Position numbers and translations under genes: made by a program. The notes under the pieces are model-generated. The model had not been told where the DNA came from and made no database searches. It worked only from the letters and a program-made list of their open reading frames with translations. From positions 1-19,475 of the IMG/VR virus record IMGVR_UViG_2778261380_000011: a stretch of 19,475 nucleotides of DNA. One strand, given 5' to 3'. Every line of letters begins with the position of its first letter. Positions within the stretch are counted from its first letter, which is position 1. Source of the stretch: a virus (taxonomy: Duplodnaviria; Heunggongvirae; Uroviricota; Caudoviricetes). Positions 2,380 to 19,475 of this stretch are shown piece by piece.

Positions 2380-2387
2380 GGTGAGAT

Positions 2388-3589: not shown

Positions 3590-3693
3590 GTTTTACAGAT
3601 AACTGGTCAGACGAAGAATTCATTCGTCTGATGAACAAAATGCTCAATCAGCACAAAGAACAGGAGAAAGATGATGATTCTGACTCTGAATGA
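3586..3693 (+). CDS. possible small acidic protein (35 aa) in the kil position
   Basis: ATG overlaps cIII stop (ATGA at 3586-3589); not in ORF track (short); overlaps start of next gene in another frame. Confidence 0.3.
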   Translation: MSFTDNWSDEEFIRLMNKMLNQHKEQEKDDDSDSE

Positions 3694-3982
3694 TAAGCGT
3701 GAAATATCGCAAATAATCGCAAGTTTTACTGATGAAGATTACGAACGAATCAACAGTGAAGTTAATCGCCTCTGCAAACGTTGCGACCCAATAAGCGAAA
3801 TGCTTCGCTCATATAAACCAGATGAACACACTAAGGACGCTATCGACTGGCTGGAAGATTATGACTGTAACTATCAGGAAAAAGCCGCTGAATGGTTCTG
3901 GGATGCAATAACCGAAAGAGTTAAGGCTGAATATGCCTTCGCAATATTCAAACGCAGACATATTTATGGAGAAGCTGCATGA
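3671..3982 (+). CDS. hypothetical protein (103 aa)
   Basis: ORF with GGAG upstream; stop overlaps recT start (ATGA). Confidence 0.65.
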   Translation: MMILTLNDKREISQIIASFTDEDYERINSEVNRLCKRCDPISEMLRSYKPDEHTKDAIDWLEDYDCNYQEKAAEWFWDAITERVKAEYAFAIFKRRHIYGEAA

Positions 3983-4881
3983 GCAATATCGTTGAATTCG
4001 TTAAACAGCAAGAGCAGTTATTCTGCGGAGCATTGACTGAACAGACGGTGACATGGGCTAAGGAAAGCCAGTTTGCAATTCAGTATTTCCAGAAAAATGA
4101 TTACCTGGCTAAAACGGCACTGGCAAATCCAACCAGCGCACAGAACGCCATCATCAATGTTGCGGCGATCGGCATCACCTTAAACCCGGCCAGCAAACTT
4201 GCTTATCTAGTTCCGCGCGACGGCATGGTTTGCCTTGATATCAGCTATATGGGATTACTTCACCTTGCACAGTCGACAGGATCAATTAAGTGGGGGCAAT
4301 GCAAACTGGTGTACTCAAACGACACCTATGAATCAAACGGCCTTGATTCAGCACCAACCCACAAATACAACGCATTTGGTGAGCGAGGCTCTATTGTTGG
4401 TGGTTATTGTACGGTTAAAACAGCAGATGGTGACTACCTCACTGAAGAAATGAGTCTGGCAGAAATTAAAGCAGTGGAAGCAACGAGCAAGGCAAAGAAT
4501 GGACCGTGGAAAACATTCTGGGAAGAGATGGCACGTAAAACAATAGTTAAACGCGCCAGCAAATACTGGCCTAAAGCCCAGCGACTGGATAATGCCATTC
4601 ACCTGCTTAACGAAGATGAAGGTATGCATCAGGAACCAGTTATGCCGCACAAATCAGAGGAAGATATCCGCGAAGATGAACGGAAACGCCAGCAGGAAAT
4701 AATGGAAAAAGCACAACTTCTTTGTGATGAAATGGCTCAGGCAGAAAACATGGATGATTTGAAGCGATATTTTGCAGAAGCATATCGCCTGACATCTGGA
4801 ATGAAATTGCAGCAGAACGTACAAGCCATTTACATAGAATGCAAAGCGAAACTGGAGGTTGCCAGTGAGCAAACTATATGA
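3979..4881 (+). CDS. recT: RecT-family single-strand annealing recombinase
   Basis: Motif NGPWKTFWEEMARKTIVKRASKYWP resembles RecT NGPWVTHWEEMAKKTAIRRLFKYLP (from memory); 300 aa; coupled to flanking genes. Confidence 0.88.
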   Translation: MSNIVEFVKQQEQLFCGALTEQTVTWAKESQFAIQYFQKNDYLAKTALANPTSAQNAIINVAAIGITLNPASKLAYLVPRDGMVCLDISYMGLLHLAQSTGSIKWGQCKLVYSNDTYESNGLDSAPTHKYNAFGERGSIVGGYCTVKTADGDYLTEEMSLAEIKAVEATSKAKNGPWKTFWEEMARKTIVKRASKYWPKAQRLDNAIHLLNEDEGMHQEPVMPHKSEEDIREDERKRQQEIMEKAQLLCDEMAQAENMDDLKRYFAEAYRLTSGMKLQQNVQAIYIECKAKLEVASEQTI

Positions 4882-5347
4882 AATAGCCAATGAATACGCA
4901 AAATTGATGGATTCAGATTTAGAGCCAGAGATGATTGCTGACACAATAGAAGGCATGGAAGGAGAATTTACCGATAAAATAGAGCAACTTCTTGCCATTA
5001 TTAAAAATGAATCTGGTTATGCTGAACGCCTCAAGGACGAGGCAAAATCACTGAATGAACGAGCCGCAGTAATTCAAAATAAGATTGACAGCATTATGGC
5101 GTATATAGCGTCATCGCTTGAAATGGTTGGCAAGAAAAAGATTCGAGCGGGTATTCACCAGGTAACAATCCGCAAACCGTCAGAAACTGTAGAAATCATC
5201 GACTCAAGCGCCCTTCCTCCTGAATACGTTGAGTTTGAAACGACAATTAAAGCCGACAAACTGGCAATCAAACACCAACTAAAAGCAGGAATAAATATCC
5301 CCGGCGCTCAACTCAAAGTTGGGAAACCTTCACTTCTTATCAAATAA
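4865..5347 (+). CDS. hypothetical coiled-coil protein (about 160 aa) in RecT-partner position, possibly Siphovirus Gp157-like
   Basis: GTG 4865 preceded by GGAGG (4854-4858), overlaps recT stop; family assignment is tentative. Confidence 0.55.
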   Translation: MSKLYEIANEYAKLMDSDLEPEMIADTIEGMEGEFTDKIEQLLAIIKNESGYAERLKDEAKSLNERAAVIQNKIDSIMAYIASSLEMVGKKKIRAGIHQVTIRKPSETVEIIDSSALPPEYVEFETTIKADKLAIKHQLKAGINIPGAQLKVGKPSLLIK

Positions 5348-5358
5348 CGGTATCGCCT

Positions 5359-5673
5359 ATGAAAAAGACTCCATGGGAGAAATGGGAAGTCGATTTCTTA
5401 CGCGAAGTAGCGGCGACAATGCCAGTTGAAGTTATCGCAGAAAAACTGGAAAGGACTGAAAAAGCAGTAATGGCGAAAGCAACAAGGATTGGCGCTGACA
5501 TTGTTAGCCGACTTCGTGGAAGACGCTGGACAAGAGCCGAAGTATCACTTTTCGGTAAGTTCTCCGCAGAAGAAATAGCAATTGCAACCTGCCGCTCAAT
5601 TTATTCAGTAAGAGCTATGCGATACAAGCTAAAAAAACTCGATGAAGAAAGAGCAGGCATACGAATAAATTAA
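5359..5673 (+). CDS. hypothetical protein (104 aa)
   Basis: ORF in operon context; weak SD. Confidence 0.55.
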
Positions 5674-5689
5674 CAAAGAGGAATTTACC

Positions 5690-5854
5690 ATGAGAGGACT
5701 TGCATACAATCCCGGCATTCTTCCGGCAGAAATGATTATTCGCCAACGCGTAAAGCCAATGCCATCGAGAGAGGAATTGCTTAAGAGAAATTCTTTTCCA
5801 TCAGTGAATCAAAACAAATATCTGAATGCGATGTGGAGGAGTGGGAAGAAATGA
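5690..5854 (+). CDS. hypothetical small protein (54 aa)
   Basis: ATG 5690 preceded by AAGAGGA; stop overlaps next start (ATGA at 5851-5854); not in ORF track. Confidence 0.45.
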
Positions 5855-6360
5855 AACAAATGTCACTAATTGAGATGGATGGATTTCTGAAAGGTAAATG
5901 CATCCCACGAGATTTAAAGGTTAACGAAACAAACGCTGAATATCTTGTCCGTAAGTTCGGTGAACTTGAATCAAAACTGGAAACGGCGTTGCGGGAGTGT
6001 CGTTCTGCTGGAATCACGATTGATAACCTTGAGGCCAAGTGCGCGGCGCTGGCAGCGGAGAGTGTGGGGATGAAGAAGTTCTGCAAAGACGCTGCATTCG
6101 ATGCCGATTACGAAGCAGAGCTAGGTATGGAGCGTGGTGGATTCAGTGATGCGCTTAACGAAATCAAAACCCCAGCCACCGATGCTTTCCTGTCTGAAGT
6201 GCGGGCGCAGGGCGTGGAGATGCTGGCAAAAAATCATCAGAGTATCGTCAATGCACTTAAGGGAGATTCTTTATTTTCTGATGGTGAATACCTGCATGCA
6301 GCTATTGTTTCCGCAGCTGTATATTTCGCTGCAGAGCTTCGCAAAGGAGGCAACCAGTGA
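5851..6360 (+). CDS. hypothetical protein (169 aa)
   Basis: ATG 5851 with GGAGG upstream; ORF-track start 5833 is a GTG extension. Confidence 0.65.
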
Positions 6361-6611
6361 GTAATTCAGCACGACTACAGCTTGGTTTTTCACCGCTATC
6401 AAAAACTATCATGCTGGCAAAAATGCGCTATGTTGAAGGTGGACGTATGCGCGTTGGCAATGATCCAGGTCGTGATGTTACCAATGAGGCTGCTCAATTG
6501 GTGTGGCGACTGGTCATGGCTGAAGGTGGTGAGATCGCGTGGGAGCTGGATGATGGTTCTCGCATGGTGTTGAAGGCAGAAAAGCAGGAGGCAACCAGTG
6601 AGCAAGATTGA
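6357..6611 (+). CDS. hypothetical protein (84 aa) bounded by identical 17-mers
   Basis: GTG 6357 overlapping preceding stop, preceded by AGGAGG; ends within second copy of aggaggcaaccagtgag. Confidence 0.45.
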   Translation: MSNSARLQLGFSPLSKTIMLAKMRYVEGGRMRVGNDPGRDVTNEAAQLVWRLVMAEGGEIAWELDDGSRMVLKAEKQEATSEQD

Positions 6612-7584
6612 TTATCAGGCACTGCGTGCTAAGGCAGAAAAAGCAACGTGTGGCGAGTGGTCGCTCGAATATGGAGAGAGCCGATTTGATGGTGATGATG
6701 CGCTAATTCATCGTGAAGTTGCTGGATATATTCCCATTTGCAGAATTGAAGGAGCGCATCCAGAAAGCGGTTTCGATGAAGATTTCCAAATGGAACAGCA
6801 GGCCAATGCTGAATTCATCGCCGCAGCCAATCCGGCTACCGTACTGGCGCTGCTGGATGAACGGGAAAGAAACCAGCAATACATCAAACGCCGTGACCAG
6901 GAGAACGAGGAAATTGCGCTTACGGTAGGGAAGCTGCTAATCGAAAACGGCCGGCTTGTTGCCGATACGCTACGCCACTTAGCTGATAACGAAATCGACT
7001 CTGATTATTTTGCTATCACCTCAACTAATGAGAACGGTACTGAAATTGATCATGAGATGTCTATTACCGATTACGCACTGCAAGCTGCCGGAACTGTAGA
7101 CGAATTGGTTGCGGCGCTGGAAGCCGCAAAATCAAAACTCAACGAGCAGCGTGAATATTACGAGGGAGTAATCGCGGATGGGAGTAAGCGTATTGCTGAA
7201 CTGGAGAAAAGCGAAGAGCAACTCATCAATGAGCGTGACCATGCTGAGTCTGCTTTAGCTGATATGTACTTTGCAGCAACCGGTAACAGGCCGGAGTGGA
7301 GCAACTGGTTCGGCTTTTCAGATGCTGTCGATGCCGTGGTTGACAGAATAGCTGATTTAGAAGCCAAACAGCCATCGCCGGTAGTGCCGGATAATGCATC
7401 AGAGTCGCTTGCTTATGCTTACAAAGAGCTTACGCCTGAGATTATGCGCGGTCATATCGCTGTATTCGAGCGATATGGAATAGCCCCAAACGATAGCATT
7501 ACCACAATTCAGGCACTGCGAATCGCGCTGGATGGTATAGAGCGGAGCGACGCCATGCTTCAGGGAGGTAATAATGACCAATAA
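6598..7584 (+). CDS. Ead/Ea22-like family protein
   Basis: GTG 6598 after AGGAGG; N-terminus MSKIDYQALRAKAEKATCGEW resembles Ea22-like prophage proteins (from memory). Confidence 0.7.
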   Translation: MSKIDYQALRAKAEKATCGEWSLEYGESRFDGDDALIHREVAGYIPICRIEGAHPESGFDEDFQMEQQANAEFIAAANPATVLALLDERERNQQYIKRRDQENEEIALTVGKLLIENGRLVADTLRHLADNEIDSDYFAITSTNENGTEIDHEMSITDYALQAAGTVDELVAALEAAKSKLNEQREYYEGVIADGSKRIAELEKSEEQLINERDHAESALADMYFAATGNRPEWSNWFGFSDAVDAVVDRIADLEAKQPSPVVPDNASESLAYAYKELTPEIMRGHIAVFERYGIAPNDSITTIQALRIALDGIERSDAMLQGGNNDQ

Positions 7585-8188
7585 CAACCTAACAGACGAG
7601 CGCCTGAGCGTACTTATCCGTGTGGCTAGGGATTCTCTTGAATTGTATGAAATGGAGTTGCCTGTCATTGATGATGTAATGCTAGCGCTGGCCGAACTTC
7701 AGCAACGCCGCGCCGCCATGCTTCAGGGAGGCCAACCTGTAAACCAAACTTACAACTTGCCAGAATTAATCGAAGGCATGGAGGTTTCCATTGATGTAAG
7801 CACTTGTGATGCTGATTTAGGTAATCGCTATTTCGGCACCGTCACCGAGGCGTCAGAACTTGATACTGCCAAGAATGGTTACATCCTCCTGGTTCAGGAC
7901 GCAGAGCCAAACTTCGATGTAAATGGCAACTATCCGGTAACTCCGGATGGTTGGATAAGCTGTAGTGAGCGAATGCCAGAAATGGGAGAGCGACAATGCT
8001 ATGTGTTAGCAGCTGACTTTAAAAACAACTACCCACCAAACATCCCCAACACTCAGGTCGGCGTATATGGCGACTGGTTTAATGATGGCAATCCCACTTG
8101 GGATGACGGTGATGGCGAAGACCTGTATCTCAAAGAGGTAACCCACTGGATGCCTCTACCAGAACCGCCTCGATTAAAGGAGCTATAA
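7574..8188 (+). CDS. DUF551 domain protein with ea22-like N-terminal remnant
   Basis: C-terminal motif VTHWMPLPEPP typical of DUF551; N-terminal about 50 aa resemble an Ea22 C-terminal tail and end at a repeated 17-mer. Confidence 0.75.
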   Translation: MTNNNLTDERLSVLIRVARDSLELYEMELPVIDDVMLALAELQQRRAAMLQGGQPVNQTYNLPELIEGMEVSIDVSTCDADLGNRYFGTVTEASELDTAKNGYILLVQDAEPNFDVNGNYPVTPDGWISCSERMPEMGERQCYVLAADFKNNYPPNIPNTQVGVYGDWFNDGNPTWDDGDGEDLYLKEVTHWMPLPEPPRLKEL

Positions 8189-8302
8189 TAGTGAACTATT
8201 ATATCTATTTGTATTAAAAGAGTTTTTATAAAATAAATCTTCCAAAGCATGTAAAAACACTGTTAATCTTAACGTGTGTGAAACGTGAAGAGAGGTGTTG
8301 AA

Positions 8303-8584
8303 ATGAGCATTCATGGTTTGTGTGAAGATCAAGAGCAATGGGCTATGCAGACCCTTATGGGATCAGGAGTTCTTGCAAGGTGCAGAATCCATAACGATGT
8401 AATTTTAGACAGCGGAAATGATGCTTCTTCTGCTTATAAATTAGGAACTTACCTATATCAAAAAGATAATAGCTGCAACTTATTCAATACTCTTACTGAA
8501 GCCCGCGACGCAATAAAGGATGCATATGAATCGTATTGTGGGATTGATGATTGCCCACAATGCTCAAAATACATTGACGATTAA
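8303..8584 (+). CDS. hypothetical Cys-containing protein (93 aa)
   Basis: ATG 8303 with GAGGTG SD; AT-rich upstream region; followed by tandem hairpins 8605-8660. Confidence 0.55.
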   Translation: MSIHGLCEDQEQWAMQTLMGSGVLARCRIHNDVILDSGNDASSAYKLGTYLYQKDNSCNLFNTLTEARDAIKDAYESYCGIDDCPQCSKYIDD

Positions 8585-8672
8585 TAATATGAACAAGTAA
8601 CTATCCTCGCACTCGCGGGGATTTCTTTTATCTGAACTCGCTACGGCGGGTTTTGTTTTATGGAGATGATAA

Positions 8673-8840
8673 ATGCACTTCCGAGTCACAGGTGAATGGA
8701 ATGGAGAGCCATTCAACAGAGTTATCGAAGCAGAAAACATCAATGACTGCTATGACCACTGGATGCTATGGGCGCAGATAGCACATGCAGACGTAACCAA
8801 TATTCGAATTGAAGAACTGAAAGAACACCAAGCCGCCTGA
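8673..8840 (+). CDS. hypothetical small protein (55 aa)
   Basis: ATG 8673 preceded by GGAG; not in ORF track; followed by terminator. Confidence 0.45.
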   Translation: MHFRVTGEWNGEPFNRVIEAENINDCYDHWMLWAQIAHADVTNIRIEELKEHQAA

Positions 8841-8853
8841 TGGCGGTTTTTTA
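8832..8853 (+). terminator. intrinsic terminator
   Basis: ccgcc (8833-8837) / ggcgg (8842-8846) stem followed by tttttta. Confidence 0.6.
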
Positions 8854-8897
8854 TTACCTGATTTGCAGGTTCGATTCCCTATTCGGAGATAGCACTC

Positions 8898-9098
8898 ATG
8901 CAACACGAACTACAGCCTGATTCACTGGTTGATTTGAAATTCATCATGGCCGATACTGGCTTCGGTAAAACCTTCATCTATGACCGGATTAAGTCCGGCG
9001 ACCTGCCAAAAGCCAAAGTTATCCACGGGCGAGCAAGATGGTTATATCGTGACCATTGTGAATTCAAAAATAAGCTCTTAAGCCGCGCCAATGGGTAA
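8898..9098 (+). CDS. alpA: AlpA-family transcriptional regulator / excisionase-like protein
   Basis: 66 aa; LKFIMADTGFGKTFIYDRIKSGDLPKAKVIHGRARWLYRD fits AlpA/Xis winged-helix pattern (from memory); 250 bp upstream of integrase on the same strand. Confidence 0.8.
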   Translation: MQHELQPDSLVDLKFIMADTGFGKTFIYDRIKSGDLPKAKVIHGRARWLYRDHCEFKNKLLSRANG

Positions 9099-9346
9099 AA
9101 TAGCGGGTAAAATATTTCTCACATCTAAAAAATACCATTCCAATCAATCCCCTGCCGCTTCAAGTAGATGTCTGCAGGGGACACCATGAACACTTCTCAC
9201 TAAGTTCAATTAATTCCATAACTCACTGTTTTAACTGATATCATCTCCTTATACTCGTCCAGCAAAGTACCATTATTTCTAATGGAATCTATACATCTTT
9301 GCGTATAACATTGTGTATAACTGAGTTCGATCTTTTTTCTATACAC

Positions 9347-10522
9347 ATGCTGCTATCTGACATCCAAATAAAAAGAGCAAAACCGAAGGACAAACCCTAT
9401 ACGCTTAACGATGGTATGGGGCTATCACTCCTGATCGACACAGCGGGCAGTAAAGGCTGGCGTTTTCGCTATCGCTTTGCAGGTAAGCCTAAGATGATTT
9501 CCTTTGGCGTATATGGCGATGTGTCGTTGGCACAGGCACGTACCAAACGTGATGAAGCGCGTTCGATGTTAGCCAACGGGATAAACCCAAGTGAAGCCAG
9601 AAAAGCAGATAAGATTGCTTTGCAGTTCGCGCATGAGAACAGCTTTGAGTCTGTGGCCAGAGAATGGCACTCATCGAAAAAAGCCACCTGGTCAGAGGGT
9701 TATGCAAAAGAGGTTCTCAATTGTATGGAAAAGGATATTTTTCCTTTTATCGGCCAGCGCCCAATTGAGCAGATTGAACCATTAGAACTGCTAACCGTCC
9801 TGCAAAAAATAGAGAAAAGAGGTGCGCTAGAGCAAACCAGTAAGATCCGCCGCCGCTGTGGTGAAGTGCTTCGTTATGCTGTTGCCACTGGTAGAGCAAA
9901 GTATAATTTTGCACCCGATTTAGCTATCGCACTCAACAAACCTAAAACCCAACACTTCCCGTTCCTGACTGAAAGCGAGTTGCCCGAGTTCGTTAATGCT
10001 CTGGATAACTATCAGGGCAGTTTAGTTACCAAATACGCCACGCAGCTGTTGATGCTAACAGGCGTGCGAACAATTGAACTACGTGCAGCGGAATGGGCTG
10101 AGTTTGATTTAGATAATGCCTTATGGGAGATCCCCAAAGAACGGATGAAGAAACGCCGCCCCCATCTGGTTCCGTTATCAACTCAGGCGATCAATATCCT
10201 GAAAAAGCTGCAAGAAATAACAGGGAATTACAGCCTCGTTTTCCCTGGCCGGAATGACGTCAGTAAACCAATGAGCGAAGCCAGCATCAACAAAGTGATA
10301 AAACTACTGGGTTATCACGGTCGGTTAACGGGTCACGGTTTCAGGCATACCATGAGCACCATCTTGCATGAGCATGGGTTTGAAAGTGCCTGGATTGAAA
10401 TGCAGCTTGCGCATGTTGATAAGAACTCTATTCGAGGTACTTACAATCATGCGCAATATATTAAAGATCGACAAGTAATGATGGAATGGTACGCTAGCTT
10501 ATTAAATACGACCTGCTATTAA
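9347..10522 (+). CDS. int: tyrosine recombinase, P4-type integrase
   Basis: N-terminus MLLSDIQIKRAKPKDKPYTLNDGMGLSLLIDTAGSKGWRFRYRF typical of P4-family arm-binding domain; C-terminal HGFRHT (HxxR) and catalytic Tyr region RGTYNHAQY; ORF-track start 9299 is an extension. Confidence 0.92.
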   Translation: MLLSDIQIKRAKPKDKPYTLNDGMGLSLLIDTAGSKGWRFRYRFAGKPKMISFGVYGDVSLAQARTKRDEARSMLANGINPSEARKADKIALQFAHENSFESVAREWHSSKKATWSEGYAKEVLNCMEKDIFPFIGQRPIEQIEPLELLTVLQKIEKRGALEQTSKIRRRCGEVLRYAVATGRAKYNFAPDLAIALNKPKTQHFPFLTESELPEFVNALDNYQGSLVTKYATQLLMLTGVRTIELRAAEWAEFDLDNALWEIPKERMKKRRPHLVPLSTQAINILKKLQEITGNYSLVFPGRNDVSKPMSEASINKVIKLLGYHGRLTGHGFRHTMSTILHEHGFESAWIEMQLAHVDKNSIRGTYNHAQYIKDRQVMMEWYASLLNTTCY

Positions 10523-11452
10523 ATCCAGCATGAAACAAATATGGTGAGTAATTTGATACTGTTTGTTTTTTGGCAACCCAGGGAAATGCCTTACAGTTGG
10601 TTGACTATTGTAATAATAATAGTTAAGACCAATGTTGCTGCCAAACTGGGTTGGATGTTGGGGAACAAGATTTGTAATTTGATCTGAAACATCTAAAAAT
10701 TTTGCAGTAACATTTGAACTTCCTCGTTGCGTGTTGCTTGATACAAAATGACGAATCCAAACTGTATTCGCTTGTAAATTCTTGAACACCAAATGTGCGG
10801 CAACAGCAGAAGGTTGACCACCTCCAAGATCTAGTACCTGGCCAGTAATTGTATAATCGCCAAATCCTAAGTAATTTTGTCCCACGAATTGATGTGCGTG
10901 CGTGAAAAGTTCCGGCCCATTATAATCAGCATTTTTTGCTAACTTTCTAAAGTTATCGCTAATAATAATTAACTTCGACAAAGGAAGAAGAGCGCACTGA
11001 TTAGGAAGCATTTTATTATTTAAAACAACATGATAACTAATCAATTGATTTGTCGCCAACAACTGAATATCAGAGTTGGATAATGATGGATTATCATATA
11101 GAAGTGCAACTCGTCTATTTAAGTTAGCATTCAACCAATTATTAATATCATTAATCGTTGTATTGGGCTGAATAAGATATCCAGAGATGATATTATTTTT
11201 ATTTGTTAATACACTTGATAAATTTTGATTTAAAGTTAAGACGTTATTGTGTGAAGAAAAATCTTCCTGATAAGGATTAAGGATAACAATTATGTCAGAA
11301 TTCCAAACATTTAAACATGTTAATAAATTTCTCGTATTGACGTTAATTGGTTCTAAAATTGGTAGCAGACCATTTAGGCTAACTCCCTTCGCAACGAGGT
11401 CCCTAAGGCATAATAACTCTGTACTTCTCGCATACAAATATGGGCTATACAT
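10502..11452 (-). CDS. hypothetical protein (316 aa), second gene of AT-rich cargo operon
   Basis: ATG 11452 preceded by AGGAG; 21-nt gap after upstream gene; no recognisable domain; 3' end overlaps integrase 3' end by 21 nt (convergent). Confidence 0.8.
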   Translation of the reverse strand: MYSPYLYARSTELLCLRDLVAKGVSLNGLLPILEPINVNTRNLLTCLNVWNSDIIVILNPYQEDFSSHNNVLTLNQNLSSVLTNKNNIISGYLIQPNTTINDINNWLNANLNRRVALLYDNPSLSNSDIQLLATNQLISYHVVLNNKMLPNQCALLPLSKLIIISDNFRKLAKNADYNGPELFTHAHQFVGQNYLGFGDYTITGQVLDLGGGQPSAVAAHLVFKNLQANTVWIRHFVSSNTQRGSSNVTAKFLDVSDQITNLVPQHPTQFGSNIGLNYYYYNSQPTVRHFPGLPKNKQYQITHHICFMLDLIAGRI

Positions 11453-11473
11453 AACTTACAACTCCTGAGGATA

Positions 11474-12355
11474 TCAACAAATTTTAATTTTTACATCCAT
11501 CAAATTCATGATGAATTCTTTTTGCTTTCTTGATAATGGTGTTGCATAACCTAAAACACGTAAACATGCTGGAAGAGAATAAATATAATCCAAAAAAACT
11601 TTATCGTTACATCTTTTTTTCATAGCAGAGATAAAGTATTTATTTGCTATGTTTAATGGCATCTGCATGAATATCTCTTTACAATATTCATAAACCAATC
11701 CGTTAGGCATATTTATTTTAGTTGAAGTGTAATCTTCTATTATAGCTAAGAACTCTTCCTTTCTAAGAACTGAAAACAAGCTGTCACTTTTAATATAATC
11801 AATATTTGAATCTGCCTCCTTAATGACACTCAATTGATCTTTTTTATTCAAAACCATAACTCCCACTCTGGGGAGATTTAAAGCACAATATTTACTTGCA
11901 TACTCTGGATGTGTAACTATATACACTTTATCAAAAACATCCAAATAATCAGGGGCTTGAGTAATCAACCTTTTTGGTGAATCATACTCTGTCTTAATCT
12001 CGTAAGCTGTAGACGTACCATTAAACACCGCAACATCCACTATAGAGTTTTTAATTGGTAACTCTATGGACGACGAACTTGTTTTTGGGCTGTGCTTACC
12101 GAATATTATTTTATTGACAAGTGCTGTCTTATAAACATATTCATTTCTATAATTCAGACGCAAAAAATCATATAATGATGTAAATAAATCCCTTAGTGAA
12201 ATCTCATGTTCATTATTATCATTGTTTGAAAACAGTGTTTCATAGCAGTAAGAATCAAAACTCCCAAATAAATCCGAAATATCCTTACCTTTTGCTAAGG
12301 ATGAAAAAATGGGGCGACGGAAAAATTTAGCATATTCCTTTTTATTATGACTCAT
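11474..12355 (-). CDS. hypothetical protein (293 aa) with PD-(D/E)xK nuclease-like motif, first gene of AT-rich cargo operon
   Basis: Motif SIVD(107)VAVF-x9-YE(119)IK(121) (nt 11993-12037); strongly AT-rich coding sequence. Confidence 0.8.
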   Translation of the reverse strand: MSHNKKEYAKFFRRPIFSSLAKGKDISDLFGSFDSYCYETLFSNNDNNEHEISLRDLFTSLYDFLRLNYRNEYVYKTALVNKIIFGKHSPKTSSSSIELPIKNSIVDVAVFNGTSTAYEIKTEYDSPKRLITQAPDYLDVFDKVYIVTHPEYASKYCALNLPRVGVMVLNKKDQLSVIKEADSNIDYIKSDSLFSVLRKEEFLAIIEDYTSTKINMPNGLVYEYCKEIFMQMPLNIANKYFISAMKKRCNDKVFLDYIYSLPACLRVLGYATPLSRKQKEFIMNLMDVKIKIC

Positions 12356-13034
12356 TACTCATACTCTATAAACATCATGCAATTTGATAAGTTATGACGA
12401 ATTCTCACCATCCAGTTACTACCTGTACATACTAATCAAAAAAAACGAGTACGCAAGATACGAAAGTACTTTTCTTGTTCACCAGTTAGCTTACCTTGAT
12501 CCTCACCAGCGACTGGAAGATAGGTAGCAGTATATGTGGAAACCTTCCCCTAGCTAGGTCTACAAACGTAGTTTGGGCATTTAGGCTCCACGATTCACGG
12601 TTTGACACGGCCTGATATCTGCACATTCGTTTTGATATGCAGCAATCGTGAAAAAGGAAAATATACGCTCGACAGACCAAAACGGCACTACACCGCACCC
12701 GCCTGCGGTTTTCATATCACTAAAAATTTTCAGCCTGGATTTTTTACAAACGATACCGCCAGTCCGTGCCAGTCCTCGAGATGTACTGCGATACAGGAAC
12801 TGAAAAGAATGAAAAGAAATTCATTTTTTTTCAGTTTTACTGTCCGTCGAATCTATGGCCTGAATACGCAACTCTATGATATTAAATGGATAATTAATTT
12901 TAGGTGTGTGATTTTATGAAGGTTTGTGAAACATGAAGAAGATAACCAGTTGAAAAATAATAATTTTATGACCGTATAAACTGAAATCCTGTGTTCAGGT
13001 TCCGGGAACAGATCGGCCATTCCCGACGCATACT

Positions 13035-13307
13035 TTACCCATTCTTTTGCGCAGCCAGCAGCAACTTTAAAGCCTTTTCCCGTTCCTCGGGTGGAATTGC
13101 ATCAATCAGCTCTTTAACCCTTCCCTGCCCGTTCAGCGCGCTTGGACTAACGGAATGGGAGAAAGCAACATTCATCACAAACGAGTGACCGCACTCCACA
13201 TTAGAGCAATAGCAGTACACATCGTACAGTTGTGGGTGTTTCCTGTTTGTTTTACCTATCCGTGCTACTGCCTGACATGTGGGGCAGTACATTCTCATCA
13301 TCTTCAT
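13035..13307 (-). CDS. Ogr/Delta-family zinc-finger transcriptional activator
   Basis: MYCPTCQ...YCYCSNVECGH Cys4 pattern as in P2 Ogr / P4 Delta; exact start among several N-terminal Met codons uncertain. Confidence 0.75.
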   Translation of the reverse strand: MKMMRMYCPTCQAVARIGKTNRKHPQLYDVYCYCSNVECGHSFVMNVAFSHSVSPSALNGQGRVKELIDAIPPEEREKALKLLLAAQKNG

Positions 13308-13373
13308 CGTTCTGTGCCCTATACTGTTGCCCGCCAGAAGAAGGGATTTGGATCCCTACCTCTTGTTCTGAAC

Positions 13374-13563
13374 GTGTAACACTGGTAACACGTGTAACGC
13401 TATTGATTTAAAAGGATTTAATCTGTTACCAGTTAGCAAAATCAAGAGGTAACGCGTGGTAACACACCATTTTTTGTTACCTCTGTTACCAGTCAGTATT
13501 TTTGACTGGTAACACTGAAGAACCGCATCAGTAACGGGTGTTACCTCTGTTACCAGTGTTACC
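13374..13563. repeat. iteron array: about 13 copies of TGTTACC / GGTAACA heptamer in both orientations, mostly phased at 9 bp; putative replication origin
   Basis: Copies at 13374-13399 (three tandem 9-mers), 13424-13430, 13448-13464, 13475-13490, 13508-13514, 13531-13563; located immediately downstream of primase gene. Confidence 0.75.
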
Positions 13564-13589
13564 TCATAAAAATAAGACTCACGCGATAA

Positions 13590-16277
13590 TCACTCAGGTT
13601 CAGCGCTTCCCAGTACCTGTGTATTGAACTGGTACACACGTTTAAGCCCTATTTCTGGCAGGCGAATGCTGTTTTGCGTCCGGCCATCTTCACCGGGTTT
13701 CAGCCAGCCCGCGTCCACACACAACCTGGCCACCTTACGCGAGTCAAATCCCTTACAGATCTCCTTCCAGCCTGACGGGAGAACGTAGAACGTCACAACC
13801 GGCTCTGTCACGTTGTCTCCTTTATCGACTTTTCTGAATCCCATCATTGAAACAGGCCGGTTCCTGTCGTCATTCCAGTCAGCAAACCGACTGAACTGAT
13901 TACGCGTCATGAAGTCCCGAACCTGTTCAAGTGCCGCTTTATCTTCCTGATTAGCTGTATGGCCCCGGTCAGCCATCCATGCAGCCAGACAGCTTTGAGC
14001 GGCACGAAAGGCCTCTCCCTCCGGCCATCCTGTGATGCCCGCTTTTGTGGCCAGCTCCCCGGCCATCGCAACCAGAGCAAAACGGGTAACAGCCCGGCCA
14101 ACCTGATTCCCGGCATTTTCCGGCGTCAGCCTTCGGGTATACTCTTTCAATAAGGCTTTCGCCTGACTGGTCAGTTCCGGCAGATCAGCGGTCAGGCAAT
14201 ACAGCCAGTCGCGGAATGGTGCACCATGATAATGCGCTACGTGCTGCTCAAGATGCTCAGCCAGGGTTTTCCCGCTACTGAAGCCATGAAGTTCTTCAAA
14301 CACGCCATACTTGCCCGAATCGCTTGGGATCTGGATCATTCTGACCTCAACCCCGGCATACGTACGTTCCCCGGCGCTTGCCGCATGCTCTACCAGTGAC
14401 AGTTCCCCGGTAGACAGAAACAACAGATTCCAGCGGTTGGTTTCCCTTACCGAACCATCTGTTCTGGCTCTGGCTTTGCCCTGCCCGTTAGCCAGCATAT
14501 AAGCGATATTTCCCGCCTCCCTGCCGTCAACCTCCCGGATTTCATCCAGCATCAGCGTGGCATCATTGCGGCGGCTCGCCGTTCCTTCTAAGGCATTCCC
14601 CGTCGCCCGCCACGTATGCCAGAAATCTGTTCCACCACATACTGATGCAGCCACTTTCATCGTCGTGGTTTTACCGTCTGTGGATTCCCCTTTGAGGTGA
14701 TAACCTCCACCGCCGATACCAACCAGTTTCAGAAGGGGGGCAGCAAATGCCAGACTCACCGCAAAGGCAAGACGGGCATTCTTTATGCAATAACGGCCTA
14801 TATTTTCACGCCAGCCCTCTGATGTGCCGCTGACACGAAAATCACGCCCCTGCACACTCGATGTTTGTAAGATGACTGACTGGGCTTCGCGCCCTATCAC
14901 TTCATCCTGGAGAACGTAAACCCCGCCGTGCCAGCCAGTTTTATTCACACAGGTTACTTTTCTGTCCGGTTTACACAGCGAGATATATTCCATCAGGAAT
15001 GCTCTGGCCATGCCGTTAATGTTGATGTAAGAAAGCCCGTTAACCAGCAGAACGCGGCGCAGTTCTTCCCCGCTACCGCCCAGCATCTCCATCGGCATTG
15101 CCCATTTACGGCTGTTTCCGTTGGTATCTTCCCATTCCAGCAAACGCCCGTAATTACTTCCATCAGCATCACTGGTGATTGCCGTCACCCGCAACGGACT
15201 GCAAATTTTGATATTACGTATCTCTGTATCACCATCAGACTTATTAACCAGCTTGTCGTACCACAAATATTCTTTTGTCAGCCGGAACCCTTCTGGTAAA
15301 CGGGTCTGCCCTTTGCCATGCAGCGTCATTTCTTCACGAAAGGCATCTCTCGCCCGTTCTTTCCCCACTTCCTGCCGATAATCATCCCAGTCAGCCTTAT
15401 GGCGTACCGGAGGGAGCGTTACCCAGCCATCCACCGCTTTGGCGGCTTTCTCTGCCTGAATACGCCCGGTGTTTTCTTTGCCGTCAGCCAGATCATTATC
15501 TCCGGCCAGAATGATCCGGGTTTCCGGCCAGCGTTTTCGGATCTGCTCCGTCACCTTCAGTAAATTGGTGGCAGCGACAGCCGCCACGATCCATCCTTCA
15601 GTCAGCAGACTGACGGTAAGCGCCGTGGCAAAACCCTCAGTGATAATCACCTGTTCAGGTGTTTCAGCGGGTATATCGGTCAGGGCAATGAATGCGCCAG
15701 ACAGCTGGCTACCGGGCAGCAGACTTTTATCCCCGTCAGGATTGATAAGCTGGCCACCAGTAATATTCCCGGAAATATCCGTCAAAGGCAGCAGTAATGA
15801 ACCGGTGGAAAATGTTATTCCGGCCAGATTCAAAGGCTGTGACAGCAAGGGAAGTGAATACCCGTGTAAGCTCTTATTTGTCAGATAGACCGGCTCACCA
15901 TTGCAGGACTGCTGTCTGAGTCTGGTATATCGCTCCGCGCCCGCTTCTTTTCCTGCGGCCTTTTTCCTGGCTGGCAATGCGGGCTTCTCCTGTATTTCTG
16001 GTAATGCAAGCGCCTCAGATACCATCCCGGCGACTTCTTTTATCTTTCTTCCTGTCACCAGACGAACCAGATCAAGACCATCGCCATGACCGCACTGATT
16101 ACAAAACCACGTCCCTCGCCCCGCTTTATCGTCCAGTCGAAAACGATCTTTTCCACCACAGGCAGGGCAAGCCCCATGATGTCCTGCGGACGGTACTTTA
16201 ATACCTAATGCTGACAGGATATAAGGCCAGCGCCCAATTGCAGCTCCGGAAATCGTGGATACAGACGGTGTTTTCAC
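13590..16277 (-). CDS. P4 alpha-type primase-helicase (895 aa)
   Basis: N-terminal zinc-binding primase motif CPACGG...WFCNQCGHGDG; Walker A GESTDGKTT; GTG start 16277 preceded by AGGAGG and overlapping upstream stop (GTGA). Confidence 0.9.
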   Translation of the reverse strand: MKTPSVSTISGAAIGRWPYILSALGIKVPSAGHHGACPACGGKDRFRLDDKAGRGTWFCNQCGHGDGLDLVRLVTGRKIKEVAGMVSEALALPEIQEKPALPARKKAAGKEAGAERYTRLRQQSCNGEPVYLTNKSLHGYSLPLLSQPLNLAGITFSTGSLLLPLTDISGNITGGQLINPDGDKSLLPGSQLSGAFIALTDIPAETPEQVIITEGFATALTVSLLTEGWIVAAVAATNLLKVTEQIRKRWPETRIILAGDNDLADGKENTGRIQAEKAAKAVDGWVTLPPVRHKADWDDYRQEVGKERARDAFREEMTLHGKGQTRLPEGFRLTKEYLWYDKLVNKSDGDTEIRNIKICSPLRVTAITSDADGSNYGRLLEWEDTNGNSRKWAMPMEMLGGSGEELRRVLLVNGLSYININGMARAFLMEYISLCKPDRKVTCVNKTGWHGGVYVLQDEVIGREAQSVILQTSSVQGRDFRVSGTSEGWRENIGRYCIKNARLAFAVSLAFAAPLLKLVGIGGGGYHLKGESTDGKTTTMKVAASVCGGTDFWHTWRATGNALEGTASRRNDATLMLDEIREVDGREAGNIAYMLANGQGKARARTDGSVRETNRWNLLFLSTGELSLVEHAASAGERTYAGVEVRMIQIPSDSGKYGVFEELHGFSSGKTLAEHLEQHVAHYHGAPFRDWLYCLTADLPELTSQAKALLKEYTRRLTPENAGNQVGRAVTRFALVAMAGELATKAGITGWPEGEAFRAAQSCLAAWMADRGHTANQEDKAALEQVRDFMTRNQFSRFADWNDDRNRPVSMMGFRKVDKGDNVTEPVVTFYVLPSGWKEICKGFDSRKVARLCVDAGWLKPGEDGRTQNSIRLPEIGLKRVYQFNTQVLGSAEPE

Positions 16278-16684
16278 AGCAGCACCTCCTGACCTTCCGG
16301 CTTCACAAATTCAAAACCTTCGGGTAGTTCGCCATCAGGTGCTCCGAAAATAATATCCCGGTAAACCTCACGCATCTCTGTGACACCAAAAACTGACAGG
16401 CGAATATTTTCTGACATAAAGCCTGGTTTAAGCATTTTTTCCAGTTTCTCTGCGGCCAGTATGCAACCAGCATCAGCCCCAAACTCATTCACCCACGGCA
16501 TTTCAATATGGTAAATAATATTACTCACCACTTTTTCGTGGGAGAGTTCTATTCGTTCGCCATCTTCAATATAAACAGGTTCATTATGAACACGCACCAT
16601 TAAGGAAATGAATGCATCAGCAATGTAGTAGCGTAAGACTGCTGTTCGTAAAGCATGCGCCTTTAAATTTTGATTATTATTCAT
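16274..16684 (-). CDS. hypothetical protein (136 aa), coupled upstream of primase
   Basis: ATG 16684 preceded by AGGGAG; stop overlaps primase start. Confidence 0.7.
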   Translation of the reverse strand: MNNNQNLKAHALRTAVLRYYIADAFISLMVRVHNEPVYIEDGERIELSHEKVVSNIIYHIEMPWVNEFGADAGCILAAEKLEKMLKPGFMSENIRLSVFGVTEMREVYRDIIFGAPDGELPEGFEFVKPEGQEVLL

Positions 16685-16913
16685 CGCGCATCACTCCCTT
16701 AATTGTGCTGGTTTCCTTAACAACGCCATCCAGTTGTTCGGCAATACAGGCCACTAAAGCCGCAGCGCCTTCCGCTGAAACAGTTCTCGCTCCATTCACT
16801 GTGGGCACGGACAAGACCTCTGCAAGAAACTCACTGGCCAGTGCCGCCCGTAACAGACGACTCTCCCCCTGTTCACTCAATATGCAGCCTTGCTTAAAAT
16901 TCATGGATTTCAT
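16677..16913 (-). CDS. hypothetical protein (78 aa)
   Basis: ATG 16913 preceded by GGAGGTG; overlaps neighbours at both ends. Confidence 0.6.
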   Translation of the reverse strand: MKSMNFKQGCILSEQGESRLLRAALASEFLAEVLSVPTVNGARTVSAEGAAALVACIAEQLDGVVKETSTIKGVMRDE

Positions 16914-17113
16914 GCAACCACCTCCCCGGCTCTTTTCACAGGGATACGGGCAGCAAAGCTCAGGATAAATTCAGTGGCAAGTTTAAGGCGTGCAGCATGC
17001 TCGCATTCTGCGATTACACGCACAGGGCGTGGACGGGCATCACGGTCTGTACGGCGGACAGCCAGAAAGACAAAGGTAAATTCAGGGTGAGATAAAGCAG
17101 GGACTGTAGCCAT
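16910..17113 (-). CDS. hypothetical protein (67 aa), first gene of replication operon
   Basis: ATG 17113 preceded by AAGGAGG (rc of 17121-17127); ORF-track 196-aa version is an unsupported upstream extension across the leader. Confidence 0.6.
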   Translation of the reverse strand: MATVPALSHPEFTFVFLAVRRTDRDARPRPVRVIAECEHAARLKLATEFILSFAARIPVKRAGEVVA

Positions 17114-17123
17114 AATGGCAACC

Positions 17124-17390
17124 TCCTTCAGATAGCGGGTAACGCTACCACCGGAGTTCCTACGCTCATGGGTGGTAGCCCAGACGGGGGTAGGAATACC
17201 GGCTCTGAAGGATACCGGCCAGCCCGAAAGCTGCCCCGCCTGGACTACCATAATTCTGATGATGTGGCGTAAAAAATAAAAAAATACAATCAGCCACCAC
17301 ACCATAAATTTTAGGTGAGTCAAAGCTGCGACACAAAAAAACACGCCTAGCGCGTGTAGTATCGCCTTCAGATAACACGGGTTCCTACGC
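17124..17390 (-). promoter_or_regulatory. structured leader with duplicated element (gttcctacgc at 17156-17165 and 17381-17390, each after ccttcagata) and a complementary gtaggaa motif (17190-17196) between them; P4 CI-RNA-like immunity architecture
   Basis: Direct repeat plus internal complement; inverted repeat gctaccacc/ggtggtagc (17135-17179) encloses the downstream copy just before the RBS. Confidence 0.45.
17334..17357 (-). terminator. intrinsic terminator/attenuator within the leader
   Basis: On minus strand: stem acacgc/gcgtgt (17341-17357) followed by U7 (rc of 17334-17340). Confidence 0.6.
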
Positions 17391-17419
17391 CCGGCTGCCG
17401 ATTTTGCGGCAACCTTTAA

Positions 17420-17449
17420 ACTATATCCCGCGCATTCCTGGTGAGGCAA
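17420..17449 (-). promoter_or_regulatory. sigma70-like promoter for the leader/replication operon (-35 TTGCCT rc of 17444-17449, 18-nt spacer, -10 TATAGT rc of 17420-17425)
   Basis: Hexamers read on minus strand upstream of the repeated leader element. Confidence 0.5.
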
Positions 17450-17552
17450 GAAATTTATAACCGAAAACTGATCATTGCCTGGATTAATTAACGCTGGCAT
17501 GCTTAAGCCTCTGCTTAAAAATAGTTCTTCATTTTTCCTGATGCTGTAAACG

Positions 17553-17580
17553 AGACCCGCCTCTGAGCGGGTCTTTCTGT
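17553..17580. terminator. GC-rich hairpin immediately after capsid-like gene
   Basis: agacccgc (17553-17560) / gcgggtct (17567-17574); T-run weak on minus strand, so function as terminator is uncertain. Confidence 0.35.
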
Positions 17581-17587
17581 CGCTAAG

Positions 17588-18592
17588 TCAATCCGCAAAC
17601 GTCAGGGTGCACTCATCAACAGCCGCGTACAGTTCAGGTTCACCGAGTGCATAACCTTCATTGCGCAGGTAGGAATGCACGTATTCACTGCTTTCATCAT
17701 CAAACTCAGCACGAAACCAGCGTGTTATCGCCTGAGTGTAAATATGCAGATTATCCAGCGTCGTTACTGCCAGACGCTTACCCGGCATAAACGGGGGAAT
17801 AAACGCAAAGCGGCCAGCAACAGAACTTGTAGCCATCTGTGCCGCATTCACATCAGACGGGCGGTCTGCGGCATTAAATAACTTCAGGCGTTGATGTGCT
17901 GCCAGCTCTGCCCCAACCAGTACAACCAGACGAGGATCTTCACGAAACTGCTCAGCAATAAGCTCTGTAATCAGATGGTTGGCCAGAGCATCAATATTTT
18001 TCCAGGTGCCAGTCTCTCCCAGAGTGACAGGCTCAGAGATGATTTGCTTTCCGTTCCCGTAGGCTTTCGCCAGTGCATGCCAGCCAATATTGACATCCTC
18101 GCCTTTTTTATTGATTTCCGGGTTTGTAGTATTTGCAATCGACACACCGTTGAAACCGACCCGCAGCATGTCCAGCGCATATGCCTGGGCAAAAAAGCTC
18201 TCAACCGTTTTCTCAAACTCATCCGGCACGCCGGTATGGTAAATATGAGACATATCGGAATAGCTGATCCGGGCGCAGGTATCCGTCTCTGTCAGAAAGA
18301 ACTCCGTACCATTGATTGCCATTTTTTTGTGGAAACGGCCACCATCCACACGTCCGGTATACAGTTCACTGGCACCAATATTGACGGCATTACCTGACAC
18401 GGCGTTAACATCACGTAGGGTAATATTTTTAATAAGCCACCCGGATTCCAGAATTGAGGTACGCAGTATATTTTCAGTAGGTTCGCTTAATGCAAAGCGT
18501 CTGTTTGATTCTTCCTGATAGTTAGTGCCAGTGACGAATTTATTATGATAACGACGTGCTGCGTCCGGCCTTTCAGTTTTGAAGGCATACAT
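17588..18592 (-). CDS. P2-family major capsid protein (gpN-like) homolog
   Basis: Segments LDMLRVGFNGVS, DALANHLITELIAEQFREDPRLVVLVGAELAA and C-terminal half align with P2 gpN as I remember it; ATG 18592 with AAGGTG SD. Confidence 0.7.
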   Translation of the reverse strand: MYAFKTERPDAARRYHNKFVTGTNYQEESNRRFALSEPTENILRTSILESGWLIKNITLRDVNAVSGNAVNIGASELYTGRVDGGRFHKKMAINGTEFFLTETDTCARISYSDMSHIYHTGVPDEFEKTVESFFAQAYALDMLRVGFNGVSIANTTNPEINKKGEDVNIGWHALAKAYGNGKQIISEPVTLGETGTWKNIDALANHLITELIAEQFREDPRLVVLVGAELAAHQRLKLFNAADRPSDVNAAQMATSSVAGRFAFIPPFMPGKRLAVTTLDNLHIYTQAITRWFRAEFDDESSEYVHSYLRNEGYALGEPELYAAVDECTLTFAD

Positions 18593-18614
18593 AGTTTTTC
18601 ACCTTTTTAAGTAT

Positions 18615-19475
18615 TTAAGAAAAGATTTTATTTTTGTACTCAGTAACCAGATTGTATTTCATTACATGCTCAACATAATCCCGGTCACTTACGACTGAAC
18701 GTAATACATAATTATCTGCTCGATAGTACTCCCTGTAAGCCATAGCTCTTGCCATTCCACCGTTATTTAATACATAACGATCAGTTGGAACGCTACAACG
18801 ACTAATAATTTCACTCACGGAATCAGATAAAGACTTGAGTGCATCAGTAATAAATTTAATATCACGGACAACGTCACTGTCATTAAATACAGAAATAAAA
18901 TCAGCAGGGATCTGGCCGGATTGAGGAAATATATTCAGTAAACGCTTATCGATTCCCTTCCCAATGTAGTTTCCTTCATCGGCCAGTACTCCCGGCAAAA
19001 GCTTGATCGTGCTCAATCGACTATGTTGTTCATTCAACCGGGAAACAGCCAGATGGTAATACCGTTCAGCATCCGCTCGTTCAGCATGCCCCATTTTATT
19101 CGTTTTGGCTTCAGCAATGCTACTGACGCCGTTTTTTGAGAATGTGCTTTTCCATGCAACTTCCGCATTTGTCACTTCACGCTGCCGGAAAGATAACTCT
19201 TCCTCTTCCTGACGACACAACTGGGCATAACGGCTCAGGAGCAGGTTGATCTCATTCGCCACAGTTTCCGTATCAGGTACTGTTAACCCCGTAAGTGAAT
19301 ACAGCTTTTCACCTTTAGCTCGCAGCTTATTCAGTGAATATATTTCAATAATACGCACAATACAGGCCGTGTCGCTATGAGTCTCTTTAAATGATCTTAC
19401 TTTGTAACTATCTAACACCGACACATGTTCGTTCTTAATTGATGCCAATTTCTTCTTAAAAACATTGTCAACCAT
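18615..19475 (-). CDS. hypothetical protein (286 aa), AT-rich
   Basis: ORF begins with ATG exactly at window end (rc of 19473-19475) and ends 22 nt before capsid gene; no family recognised. Confidence 0.65.
   Translation of the reverse strand: MVDNVFKKKLASIKNEHVSVLDSYKVRSFKETHSDTACIVRIIEIYSLNKLRAKGEKLYSLTGLTVPDTETVANEINLLLSRYAQLCRQEEEELSFRQREVTNAEVAWKSTFSKNGVSSIAEAKTNKMGHAERADAERYYHLAVSRLNEQHSRLSTIKLLPGVLADEGNYIGKGIDKRLLNIFPQSGQIPADFISVFNDSDVVRDIKFITDALKSLSDSVSEIISRCSVPTDRYVLNNGGMARAMAYREYYRADNYVLRSVVSDRDYVEHVMKYNLVTEYKNKIFS

Follow-up and report, generated by a model that had tools for sequence, protein, structure and literature searches.

A satellite-specific protein family stands in the scaffold slot beside the capsid gene of P4-like satellites in enterobacteria

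The DNA analyzed here, positions 1 to 19,475 of IMG/VR virus record IMGVR_UViG_2778261380_000011, is 19,475 nucleotides (nt) long, and we refer to this whole stretch as the window. It ends with a minus-strand gene for a protein of 286 amino acids (aa), which we call X. The gene belongs to a P4-like satellite of ~11 kb located at argW/dsdC, and in the complete genome of Escherichia coli SK1144 the island spans the region from tRNA-Arg to dsdC. There, int lies on one strand and the opposite strand carries, in order, sce7725, sce7726, Ogr/Delta, primase, two small open reading frames (ORFs), an Ash/Icd-like gene, the capsid gene, X, and AlpA. The AlpA regulator gene (Phage_AlpA, 75 aa) lies just beyond the window and is found in locus L001. 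X is a conserved core gene of this satellite, and it stands in the slot that gpO, the scaffold-protease, holds in phages of the P2 type. The X end of the element consists of the following features.

18615-19475, minus strand: gene X, a 286-aa protein of an uncharacterized satellite-specific family (ORF and translation, true start, family searches, AlphaFold2).
18593-18614, minus strand: 22-nt spacer between X and the capsid gene, with the ribosome-binding site AAGGTG 8 nt 5' of the capsid ATG (sequence reading).
17588-18592, minus strand: satellite P2-family (gpN-like) major capsid protein, 334 aa (PF05125 at E=9.5e-67, profile positions 16 to 326 of 327; phrog_70).

X is a single minus-strand ORF whose ATG forms the final three bases of the window, and no rival ORF of at least 50 aa was present on the opposite strand across it. 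An earlier note on this DNA, made from the sequence alone, had called the neighboring gene a capsid homolog, which the PF05125 match bears out, and had raised the possibility that the ORF continued upstream of the window. The SK1144 genome, in which the identical ORF and start are annotated (WP_000228221.1, hypothetical protein), speaks against such a continuation. Its upstream sequence has an in-frame TGA five codons 5' of the X ATG and a GAGGTGG Shine-Dalgarno sequence 7 to 8 nt 5' of the same ATG, so the start codon in the window is the real N terminus and X has no upstream extension. The X ORF is thus real and complete. The 2-kb segment comprising X and the capsid gene was found in 450 of 5426 complete E. 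coli genomes, at 99% identity or more in 421 of them, and was chromosomal in all.

The association of X with a capsid gene extends well beyond close relatives. Nine X-family lineages, whose proteins share 19 to 50% identity with that of the window, could be placed on contigs, and in all nine X lay directly 5' of a same-strand Phage_cap_P2 gene. The gap between the two genes was 9 to 41 nt in eight lineages and 145 nt in the other. The surrounding elements carried an integrase, an AlpA or helix-turn-helix regulator, and a primase, usually along with Ogr/Delta and Ash or epsilon ('Derepression'). In one lineage (L017), the pair follows Ash instead of preceding it, and the X and capsid genes are still adjacent.

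The relation to gpO was examined in 80 IMG/VR loci containing relatives of the capsid gene, in which the neighboring genes were typed with hidden Markov models for X and GPO. Loci with a capsid protein at least 52% identical to that of the window were designated satellite type (16 loci) and the remaining 64 were designated phage type. X was upstream of the capsid gene in 15 of the 16 satellite-type loci, the other being cut at a contig edge, and GPO was upstream in none. A full-length GPO scaffold-protease gene was directly upstream in every one of the 64 phage-type loci, and X was in none. The earlier note had placed X in the gpO slot from its position, and these counts agree with that placement. 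The window satellite has no GPO gene. A short GPO of 170 to 183 aa, which spans positions 3 to 178 of the 268 in the profile, is encoded downstream of the capsid gene in L003/L004 and in three satellite loci (L031 to L033).

L003 9903-10424, L031 3499-4008, L032 3225-3773, and L033 5984-6517, in each case immediately 3' of the capsid gene: protease-only GPO genes (GPO profile).

Those profile positions would cover the protease domain of P2 gpO and leave out its C-terminal scaffold domain. The short satellite GPO would thus lack the scaffold part, and the scaffold portion would be what is missing where X occurs.

X and the capsid protein diverge together. Across all pairs, X identity drops in step with capsid identity and about twice as fast. 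Measured against a relative of 95% identity, the ratio of nonsynonymous to synonymous substitution rates (dN/dS) was 0.24 for X and 0.15 for the capsid gene, and the dN of X was 4 to 5 times that of the capsid gene. By these ratios, X is under purifying selection and the capsid gene under strong purifying selection.

A search of 5.8 billion proteins returned 105 relatives of X, all of them unnamed, from Enterobacterales, and about 281 to 312 aa in length. An exhaustive profile search of 1.84 billion representatives gave only 53 clusters (50% identity), with members of about 280 to 300 aa when full length. The named hosts are Escherichia, Salmonella, Klebsiella, Enterobacter, Citrobacter, Cronobacter, Hafnia, and others; a single-protein locus scan with X gave three Citrobacter loci only. 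X matched no family in Pfam (E<0.1) or NCBIfam, its PHROG matches were at chance level only, and it matched no defense family in PADLOC, where the sole match was likewise at chance level (E=0.029). Pfam searches with 37 divergent members gave only scattered coiled-coil noise, and sequence comparison of X with solved structures gave only coiled-coil or low-complexity matches. A tblastn search of X against 50,697 phage records gave nothing below E=5; by this comparison X appears to be missing from phages, as are the known satellite remodeling proteins.

Candidate homologs were compared at the profile level and were rejected. The hhalign probability was 0.07% with P2 gpO, 1.0% with the scaffold of Cronobacter phage ESSI-2, and 1.4% with a 61-sequence GPO alignment, and hhalign revealed no segment common to X and the ESSI-2 or P2 scaffolds. 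Profile comparisons with Sid and Psu, the capsid-remodeling proteins of P4, were also negative, and neither was among the fold matches listed. The Pfam and hhalign results show no homology of X to a scaffold or protease, which would have counted against the reading of the earlier note.

The AlphaFold2 model of X is confident (predicted local distance difference test score, 85.9; predicted template-modeling score, 0.80) and all-alpha, with zero beta strands. Helices 73 to 113 and 126 to 157 (41 and 32 residues) form a long hairpin. Conserved blocks occupy residues 24 to 87 (R41, E44, an LTG motif, and E75) and 228 to 262 (PxD[KR]Y and AYRxYY), and the hairpin is variable. Fold searches with the model returned no specific relative, and the remote-homology searches and structure prediction proposed by the earlier note place X in no known family. 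That note had also described X as not scaffold-like, and this description holds for one aspect only. In composition, X is indeed not rich in Ala and Glu (7.0% and 7.3%, with an isoelectric point [pI] of 8.6) in comparison with gpO and Sid (Ala, 11 to 14%; Glu, 10%; pI, 5.2 to 5.8). In architecture, the predicted all-helical structure with its hairpin would match the general plan of phage and satellite scaffolds, and judged by the model X would be unscaffold-like by composition only.

Because X lies 5' of the capsid gene in all nine lineages and is mutually exclusive with full-length gpO, and because it has an all-helical hairpin model, divergence in step with the capsid protein, an element with a predicted helper-type cos site, and no phage homolog, we propose that X is a satellite-specific partner of the capsid protein of the satellite, serving as a scaffold or as a size-determining factor. 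We regard this proposal as evenly balanced between being right and being wrong. The chance that X functionally replaces the scaffold portion of gpO seems to us to be about one in two. Physical binding of X to the capsid protein and a scaffold role are what we infer from the arrangement; whether X would sit inside or outside the shell, and how large that shell might be, are further parts of the proposal.

Several points weigh against a scaffold role. X resembles gpO, the ESSI-2 scaffold, Sid, and Psu neither in sequence nor in profile, and it is mildly basic and not rich in Ala and Glu, unlike gpO and Sid. The compact model with its invariant polar residues R41, E44, and E75 would suit a specific binding or regulatory protein. 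X also occupies a position corresponding to the regulatory left operon of P4 (from the AlpA homolog to epsilon), and by analogy a regulatory role is possible. The satellite protease is absent from most lineages and from the window, and the argument from truncated gpO rests on a minority. Finally, the interaction between X and the capsid protein is one that we infer.

Some of these points would be accommodated if X were a helper-interference or regulatory factor merely cotranscribed with the capsid gene, such as an inhibitor or hijacker of the helper gpO, portal, or terminase, an antirepressor, or a transcription factor of the AlpA operon. We consider this unlikely. X does lie in an AlpA-led operon, which in P4 has regulatory and immunity functions, and its fast evolution suits a protein that faces a helper target; the compact fold, invariant charged residues, and basic pI are atypical of scaffolds, to which X shows no similarity. 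However, a regulator would not be expected to stay beside the capsid gene when the pair shifts relative to Ash, as in L017, nor would strict exclusivity with full-length gpO be expected of it. No DNA-binding or regulatory domain was detected in X with Pfam and NCBIfam or in the 37 divergent members with Pfam. Moreover, an inhibitor of the helper gpO or portal would still be morphogenetic, and so it overlaps with the proposal of a scaffold or size-determining partner.

The rest of the element is P4-like in its genes and sites, and the features of the window beyond the X end are as follows.

9347-10522, plus strand: satellite tyrosine integrase (annotated start; the mechanical ORF begins at 9299; Pfam Arm-DNA-bind_3, Phage_int_M, and Phage_integrase); it adjoins tRNA-Arg in SK1144.
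10502-12355, minus strand: variable cargo, a pair of sce7726-family and sce7725-family genes (NCBIfam NF033831 and NF033832; PADLOC 'cll' for sce7726, E=1e-18).
12658-12840, minus strand: predicted cos site of the ESSI-2 type of Peduoviridae, with core AGGCGGGTGCGGTGTAG at 12688-12704 (blastn, comparison of record ends).
13035-13307, minus strand: Ogr/Delta-like zinc-finger late-gene activator (PF04606 at E=5e-14, and annotation).
13360-13580, no strand assigned: at least 12 GTTACC/GGTAAC iterons, direct and inverted, in the interval from the primase stop codon to the Ogr/Delta gene (repeat families D1 to D5 and I1 to I16).
13590-16277, minus strand: primase-helicase, P4 alpha-like, with Zn ribbon, Toprim, and DUF927 (Pfam Zn_Ribbon_Prim, Toprim_3, and DUF927; PHROG).
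16274-16913, minus strand: a pair of small conserved satellite ORFs encoding 78 aa and 136 aa (phrog_5991 and a weak DUF5375 match for the 136-aa one).
16910-17500, minus strand: Ash/Icd-like protein, of a helper-derepression or cell-division-inhibitor family of P4-like elements (PF10554 Phage_ASH at E=3e-32; annotated as Icd-like).
17549-17575, minus strand: GC-rich hairpin after the capsid stop codon and before the Ash and primase genes (8- to 9-bp GC stem, weak U tract).

Among the seven P4-like core components listed previously (PMC10085698), the element has the integrase, the alpha-type primase, Delta, AlpA, and Ash/epsilon. No Sid or Psu gene was found in the window or in L001 by Pfam and annotation, and the Pfam tables of the related loci show no Psu. 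No portal, terminase, or connector gene was present in the annotation or among the Pfam-scanned ORFs of the element, the capsid gene being the only gene of a phage head module present. With no Sid or Psu, X and the capsid gene are the sole candidate morphogenetic module of the element.

The same absence of Sid and Psu from a P4-like element would fit X as an external cage or decoration protein, an analog of Sid, Psu, and the TcaP protein discussed below, with the capsid homolog coassembling with the helper capsid protein in the manner of SaPIbov5 Ccm. X is helical and near Sid in size (286 versus 244 aa), and a capsid homolog has been credited with small capsids in SaPIbov5 and another noted in PmCI172 (PMC6092414). 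Against this stand the negative sequence, profile, and fold comparisons of X with Sid and Psu, and the data fit a location outside and one inside the shell alike. We think a cage protein distinctly unlikely.

The iteron array is probably the replication origin of the satellite, judging by analogy with P4, in which the crr repeats are annotated 3' of alpha; the window iterons lie in the analogous position 3' of the primase gene. The two small ORFs likewise precede the primase in L003. The hairpin after the capsid gene has a minimum free energy of -18.1 kcal/mol in a 76-nt context (z = -1.4) and was not called in a terminator scan; it is a weak candidate for a terminator or attenuator. X itself shares the strand of the primase and is flanked by alpA and the capsid gene; delta stands apart as its own gene, downstream of the primase. 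TGT-N12-ACA dyads, the Ogr/Delta-type consensus, occur at window positions 13364-13381 and at L001 positions 14277-14294 (outside the window), centered ~65 nt upstream of the start codons of delta and alpA. We do not interpret them as late promoters, since L003 and L005 lack them at these places and the dyad at delta overlaps the iterons.

Farther along, three to four tandem TATTCACC-like repeats lie upstream of the alpA promoter region (L001, ~14330-14400), and their position is kept in L003 and L005, relatives at 28 to 43% X identity. They are possibly integrase arm-type sites or regulator binding sites near the attachment site. About 11 CCCAG pentanucleotide repeats were seen between the end of the satellite alpA and dsdC (L001, ~14490-14560), outside the window, and this simple-sequence repeat at the boundary of island and chromosome could vary in length among strains. 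At the other side of the satellite, and in tandem with it, window positions 1 to ~9300 are the early region of a lambdoid prophage (in matching genomes, RecT, a P63C-domain gene, and others of this sort). Only three genomes, ST131 among them, match the window over 80% or more of its length, so the tandem of prophage and satellite is strain specific. The window contains no tRNA gene; in SK1144 the satellite integrase gene abuts tRNA-Arg.

Base composition separates X from the cargo. X has a GC content of 40.7% (37.6% at third codon positions [GC3]), with 60-nt lines ranging from 27% to 55%; the mean for the window is 44.7%. X is poorer in GC than its core neighbors, the capsid (48.3%), Ash/Icd (50.8%), and primase (53.3%) genes, and GC-richer than the two cargo genes (30.6% and 34.0%), which are the AT-richest part of the window at 31 to 34% GC and a GC3 of about 27%. 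The earlier note had put X at about 37% GC and below its neighbors. It is below the core neighbors, but the figure of 37% applies to one line and not to the ORF, and the cargo is lower still. The cargo slot, near cos and downstream of Ogr/Delta, differs among relatives, which have SLATT with a reverse transcriptase, a DprA-like gene, or YoeB/YefM in that place. Defense genes are common in satellites (PMC9122126). The suggestion that X might itself be a second cargo or accessory gene is not supported by these comparisons. X is beside the capsid gene in every lineage, down to 19 to 20% identity, it is outside the cos-proximal hotspot, it codiverges with the capsid protein, and it matches no defense family, while the real cargo varies by element.

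The noncoding DNA between the Delta gene and the cargo links the satellite to a helper lineage. In blastn searches against phages, it matched only noncoding DNA of ESSI-2-like Peduoviridae, in several cases at the end of the record. The 17-nt core AGGCGGGTGCGGTGTAG is identical to the terminal repeat/junction of Cronobacter phage ESSI-2, a stretch of 48 nt matches the joined ends of the ESSI-2 record at 90% identity, and identity falls to 75% in the 148 nt that follow. The 15-nt sequence GCGGGTGCGGTGTAG is present at both termini of the ESSI-2 record, and the satellite has the contiguous joined form ...GCAGGCGGGTGCGGTGTAGTGCCG... at 12688-12704. We read this site, from its sequence, as a helper-type cos site and the predicted target of the helper terminase. 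The phage capsid proteins closest to that of the window were also from ESSI-2-like Peduoviridae (48% identity); the window capsid protein is 25% identical to P2 gpN. P2 itself was considered as the helper and rejected, a P2-type cos site with up to 3 mismatches not being found. An ESSI-2-like member of the Peduoviridae, not P2, is the likely helper on these matches. ESSI2_ev040-like head modules occurred at 80% coverage or more in 29 of the 5426 E. coli genomes, with 48 in total, and none of the listed satellite-bearing strains was among the 40 helper matches listed. With helper head modules this rare, the satellite is mostly resident without a helper, as with P4 and P2.

The rarity of ESSI-2-like prophages in E. 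coli genomes that have the satellite would also suit a rival account, the closest to the earlier idea of a second cargo, in which X and the capsid homolog form a two-gene antiphage cargo (a decoy capsid with an effector or sensor) that poisons the assembly of invading P2-family phages. The greater AT content of X relative to its neighbors and the frequency of defense genes in satellites (PMC9122126) point the same way. Nevertheless, the pair is kept in all lineages while the true cargo at the Ogr/Delta-cos hotspot varies, and neither X nor the capsid protein matches PADLOC. The element retains a helper-type cos, an origin, and a primase, and so is equipped for packaging; the capsid homolog matches the full length of its profile and has a dN/dS of 0.15. 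We give the decoy account only a slim chance of being correct.

If X partners the satellite capsid protein, as a scaffold or a size-determining factor, the following course of events can be proposed. Helper infection or induction would lead to a transcript covering AlpA, X, and the capsid gene. X, a helical protein whose conserved terminal blocks (N and C) are linked through a long, variable coiled-coil hairpin, would bind the satellite capsid protein and would nucleate or constrain a shell fit for a genome of ~11 kb, about one third of that of the helper (~29 to 31 kb). The helper would supply the portal and the terminase, which would act on the cos site that both have in common, and also the functions for head completion, tail, and lysis. 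Maturation proteolysis would be due to the helper gpO or, in some relatives, to the satellite protease-only gpO. The ~11-kb cos satellite would then be packaged by the terminase of the ESSI-2-like helper into a shell that consists, entirely or in part, of satellite capsid protein.

A bolder version, which we hold to be somewhat unlikely, is that X is a de novo scaffold fold and that a P4-type satellite uses its own gpN-type protein to build a small shell (T=4-like) that is complete, with the ESSI-2-like helper giving only the portal, terminase, and tail. If so, the element would represent a minimal two-gene 'capsid-forming' strategy and an independent, P2-lineage origin of satellite-made capsids. 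It would be intermediate between P4, which remodels the helper capsid protein, and the phage-inducible chromosomal islands that form capsids (cf-PICIs), which have a full head module, and the mutual exclusivity of X and gpO would reflect nonorthologous replacement of the phage scaffold.

The known routes by which satellites redirect capsid size are small helical proteins (Sid, CpmB, Rcm, and TcaP), a capsid homolog (Ccm), and a whole head module (cf-PICIs). The locus described here points to a further route, with a P4-like backbone that has its own P2-type capsid gene and the uncharacterized partner X in place of Sid and Psu. The satellite is widespread in enterobacteria; about 8% of complete E. 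coli genomes have it, genomes of sequence type 131 (ST131) among them. If X is a scaffold, it would provide a two-gene system for the nucleation and sizing of an HK97-fold shell, a clean case of nonorthologous scaffold replacement, and, together with the satellite-clade capsid gene, a marker pair for a subgroup of satellites without two of the seven P4 core components. Lacking those two components, the subgroup would be scored by current detection models at best as an incomplete P4-like variant or a three-component phage-inducible chromosomal island. A compact particle chassis is another possible outcome, and engineering of P4-based delivery particles exists in the literature. Should X prove not to be a scaffold, it would remain a conserved protein that evolves fast, faces the helper, and has an unknown fold. 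The module, with its two genes, is simple in makeup, widespread, and open to direct tests.

Compared with P2, X occupies the same slot as gpO (GPO, PF05929; an internal scaffold fused to a serine protease), each being the 5' neighbor of the capsid gene on the same strand, and the two are of similar length (286 aa versus 284 aa). They differ in that gpO has an N-terminal serine protease of mixed alpha/beta structure followed by a helical C-terminal scaffold, whereas the X model is all-alpha without a protease domain. In addition, gpO is acidic and X is basic, and X is found in satellites only, never in the phage records searched.

P4 is the nearest relative in overall plan. P4 and the window element share a common core set of int, alpha-type primase, Delta, AlpA, and Ash and have a helper-type cos site beside a cargo hotspot. 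P4 remodels the helper capsid protein with Sid and Psu. Sid (with Psu, an external size-determining cage and a decoration protein, respectively) resembles X in being satellite encoded, helical, and without phage homologs, and so does Psu. However, the sid-delta-psu operon of P4 is divergent from alpA, whereas X is in the AlpA-primase operon, and the helper is ESSI-2-like for the window satellite and P2 for P4. X is paired with a satellite-encoded capsid gene, whereas P4 has none (PMC9122126).

Other satellites use proteins that attach to the major capsid protein and determine the size of the capsid, namely, CpmB of the Staphylococcus aureus pathogenicity islands (SaPIs) and Rcm of SaPIpT1028, which are internal scaffold mimics (PMC12409344), and TcaP of the PLEs (elements that resemble phage-inducible chromosomal islands), an external scaffold (PMC10945586). 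These are small helical satellite proteins without sequence relatives among the known remodelers, and theirs is the functional class proposed for X. They act on the helper capsid protein, whereas X has its own capsid gene alongside. CpmB and the helper scaffold have a C-terminal capsid-binding motif in common; hhalign detected no segment of this kind in both X and the ESSI-2 scaffold.

The Ccm protein of SaPIbov5, a homolog of the major capsid protein, is credited with satellite-sized capsids, and the same has been proposed for PmCI172 (PMC6092414). SaPIbov5, PmCI172, and the window satellite thus all encode a homolog of the helper major capsid protein. EcCIMP1 and PmCI172 are each distinct from the window element. 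The literature examined, with incomplete coverage, contained no X-like partner of Ccm or of the PmCI172 capsid homolog and no description of the X family or of a P4-like backbone with a P2-family capsid gene. The cf-PICIs assemble their own capsids (PMC10085698; 10.1101/2022.09.08.507074). Besides the capsid gene, cf-PICIs carry genes for the portal, protease, head-tail adaptor/connectors, TerS, and TerL, whereas elements of the window type have the capsid gene and X and sometimes a protease gene. The window element further differs from cf-PICIs in joining a P2-family capsid protein to a P4-like backbone with Ogr/Delta and cos.

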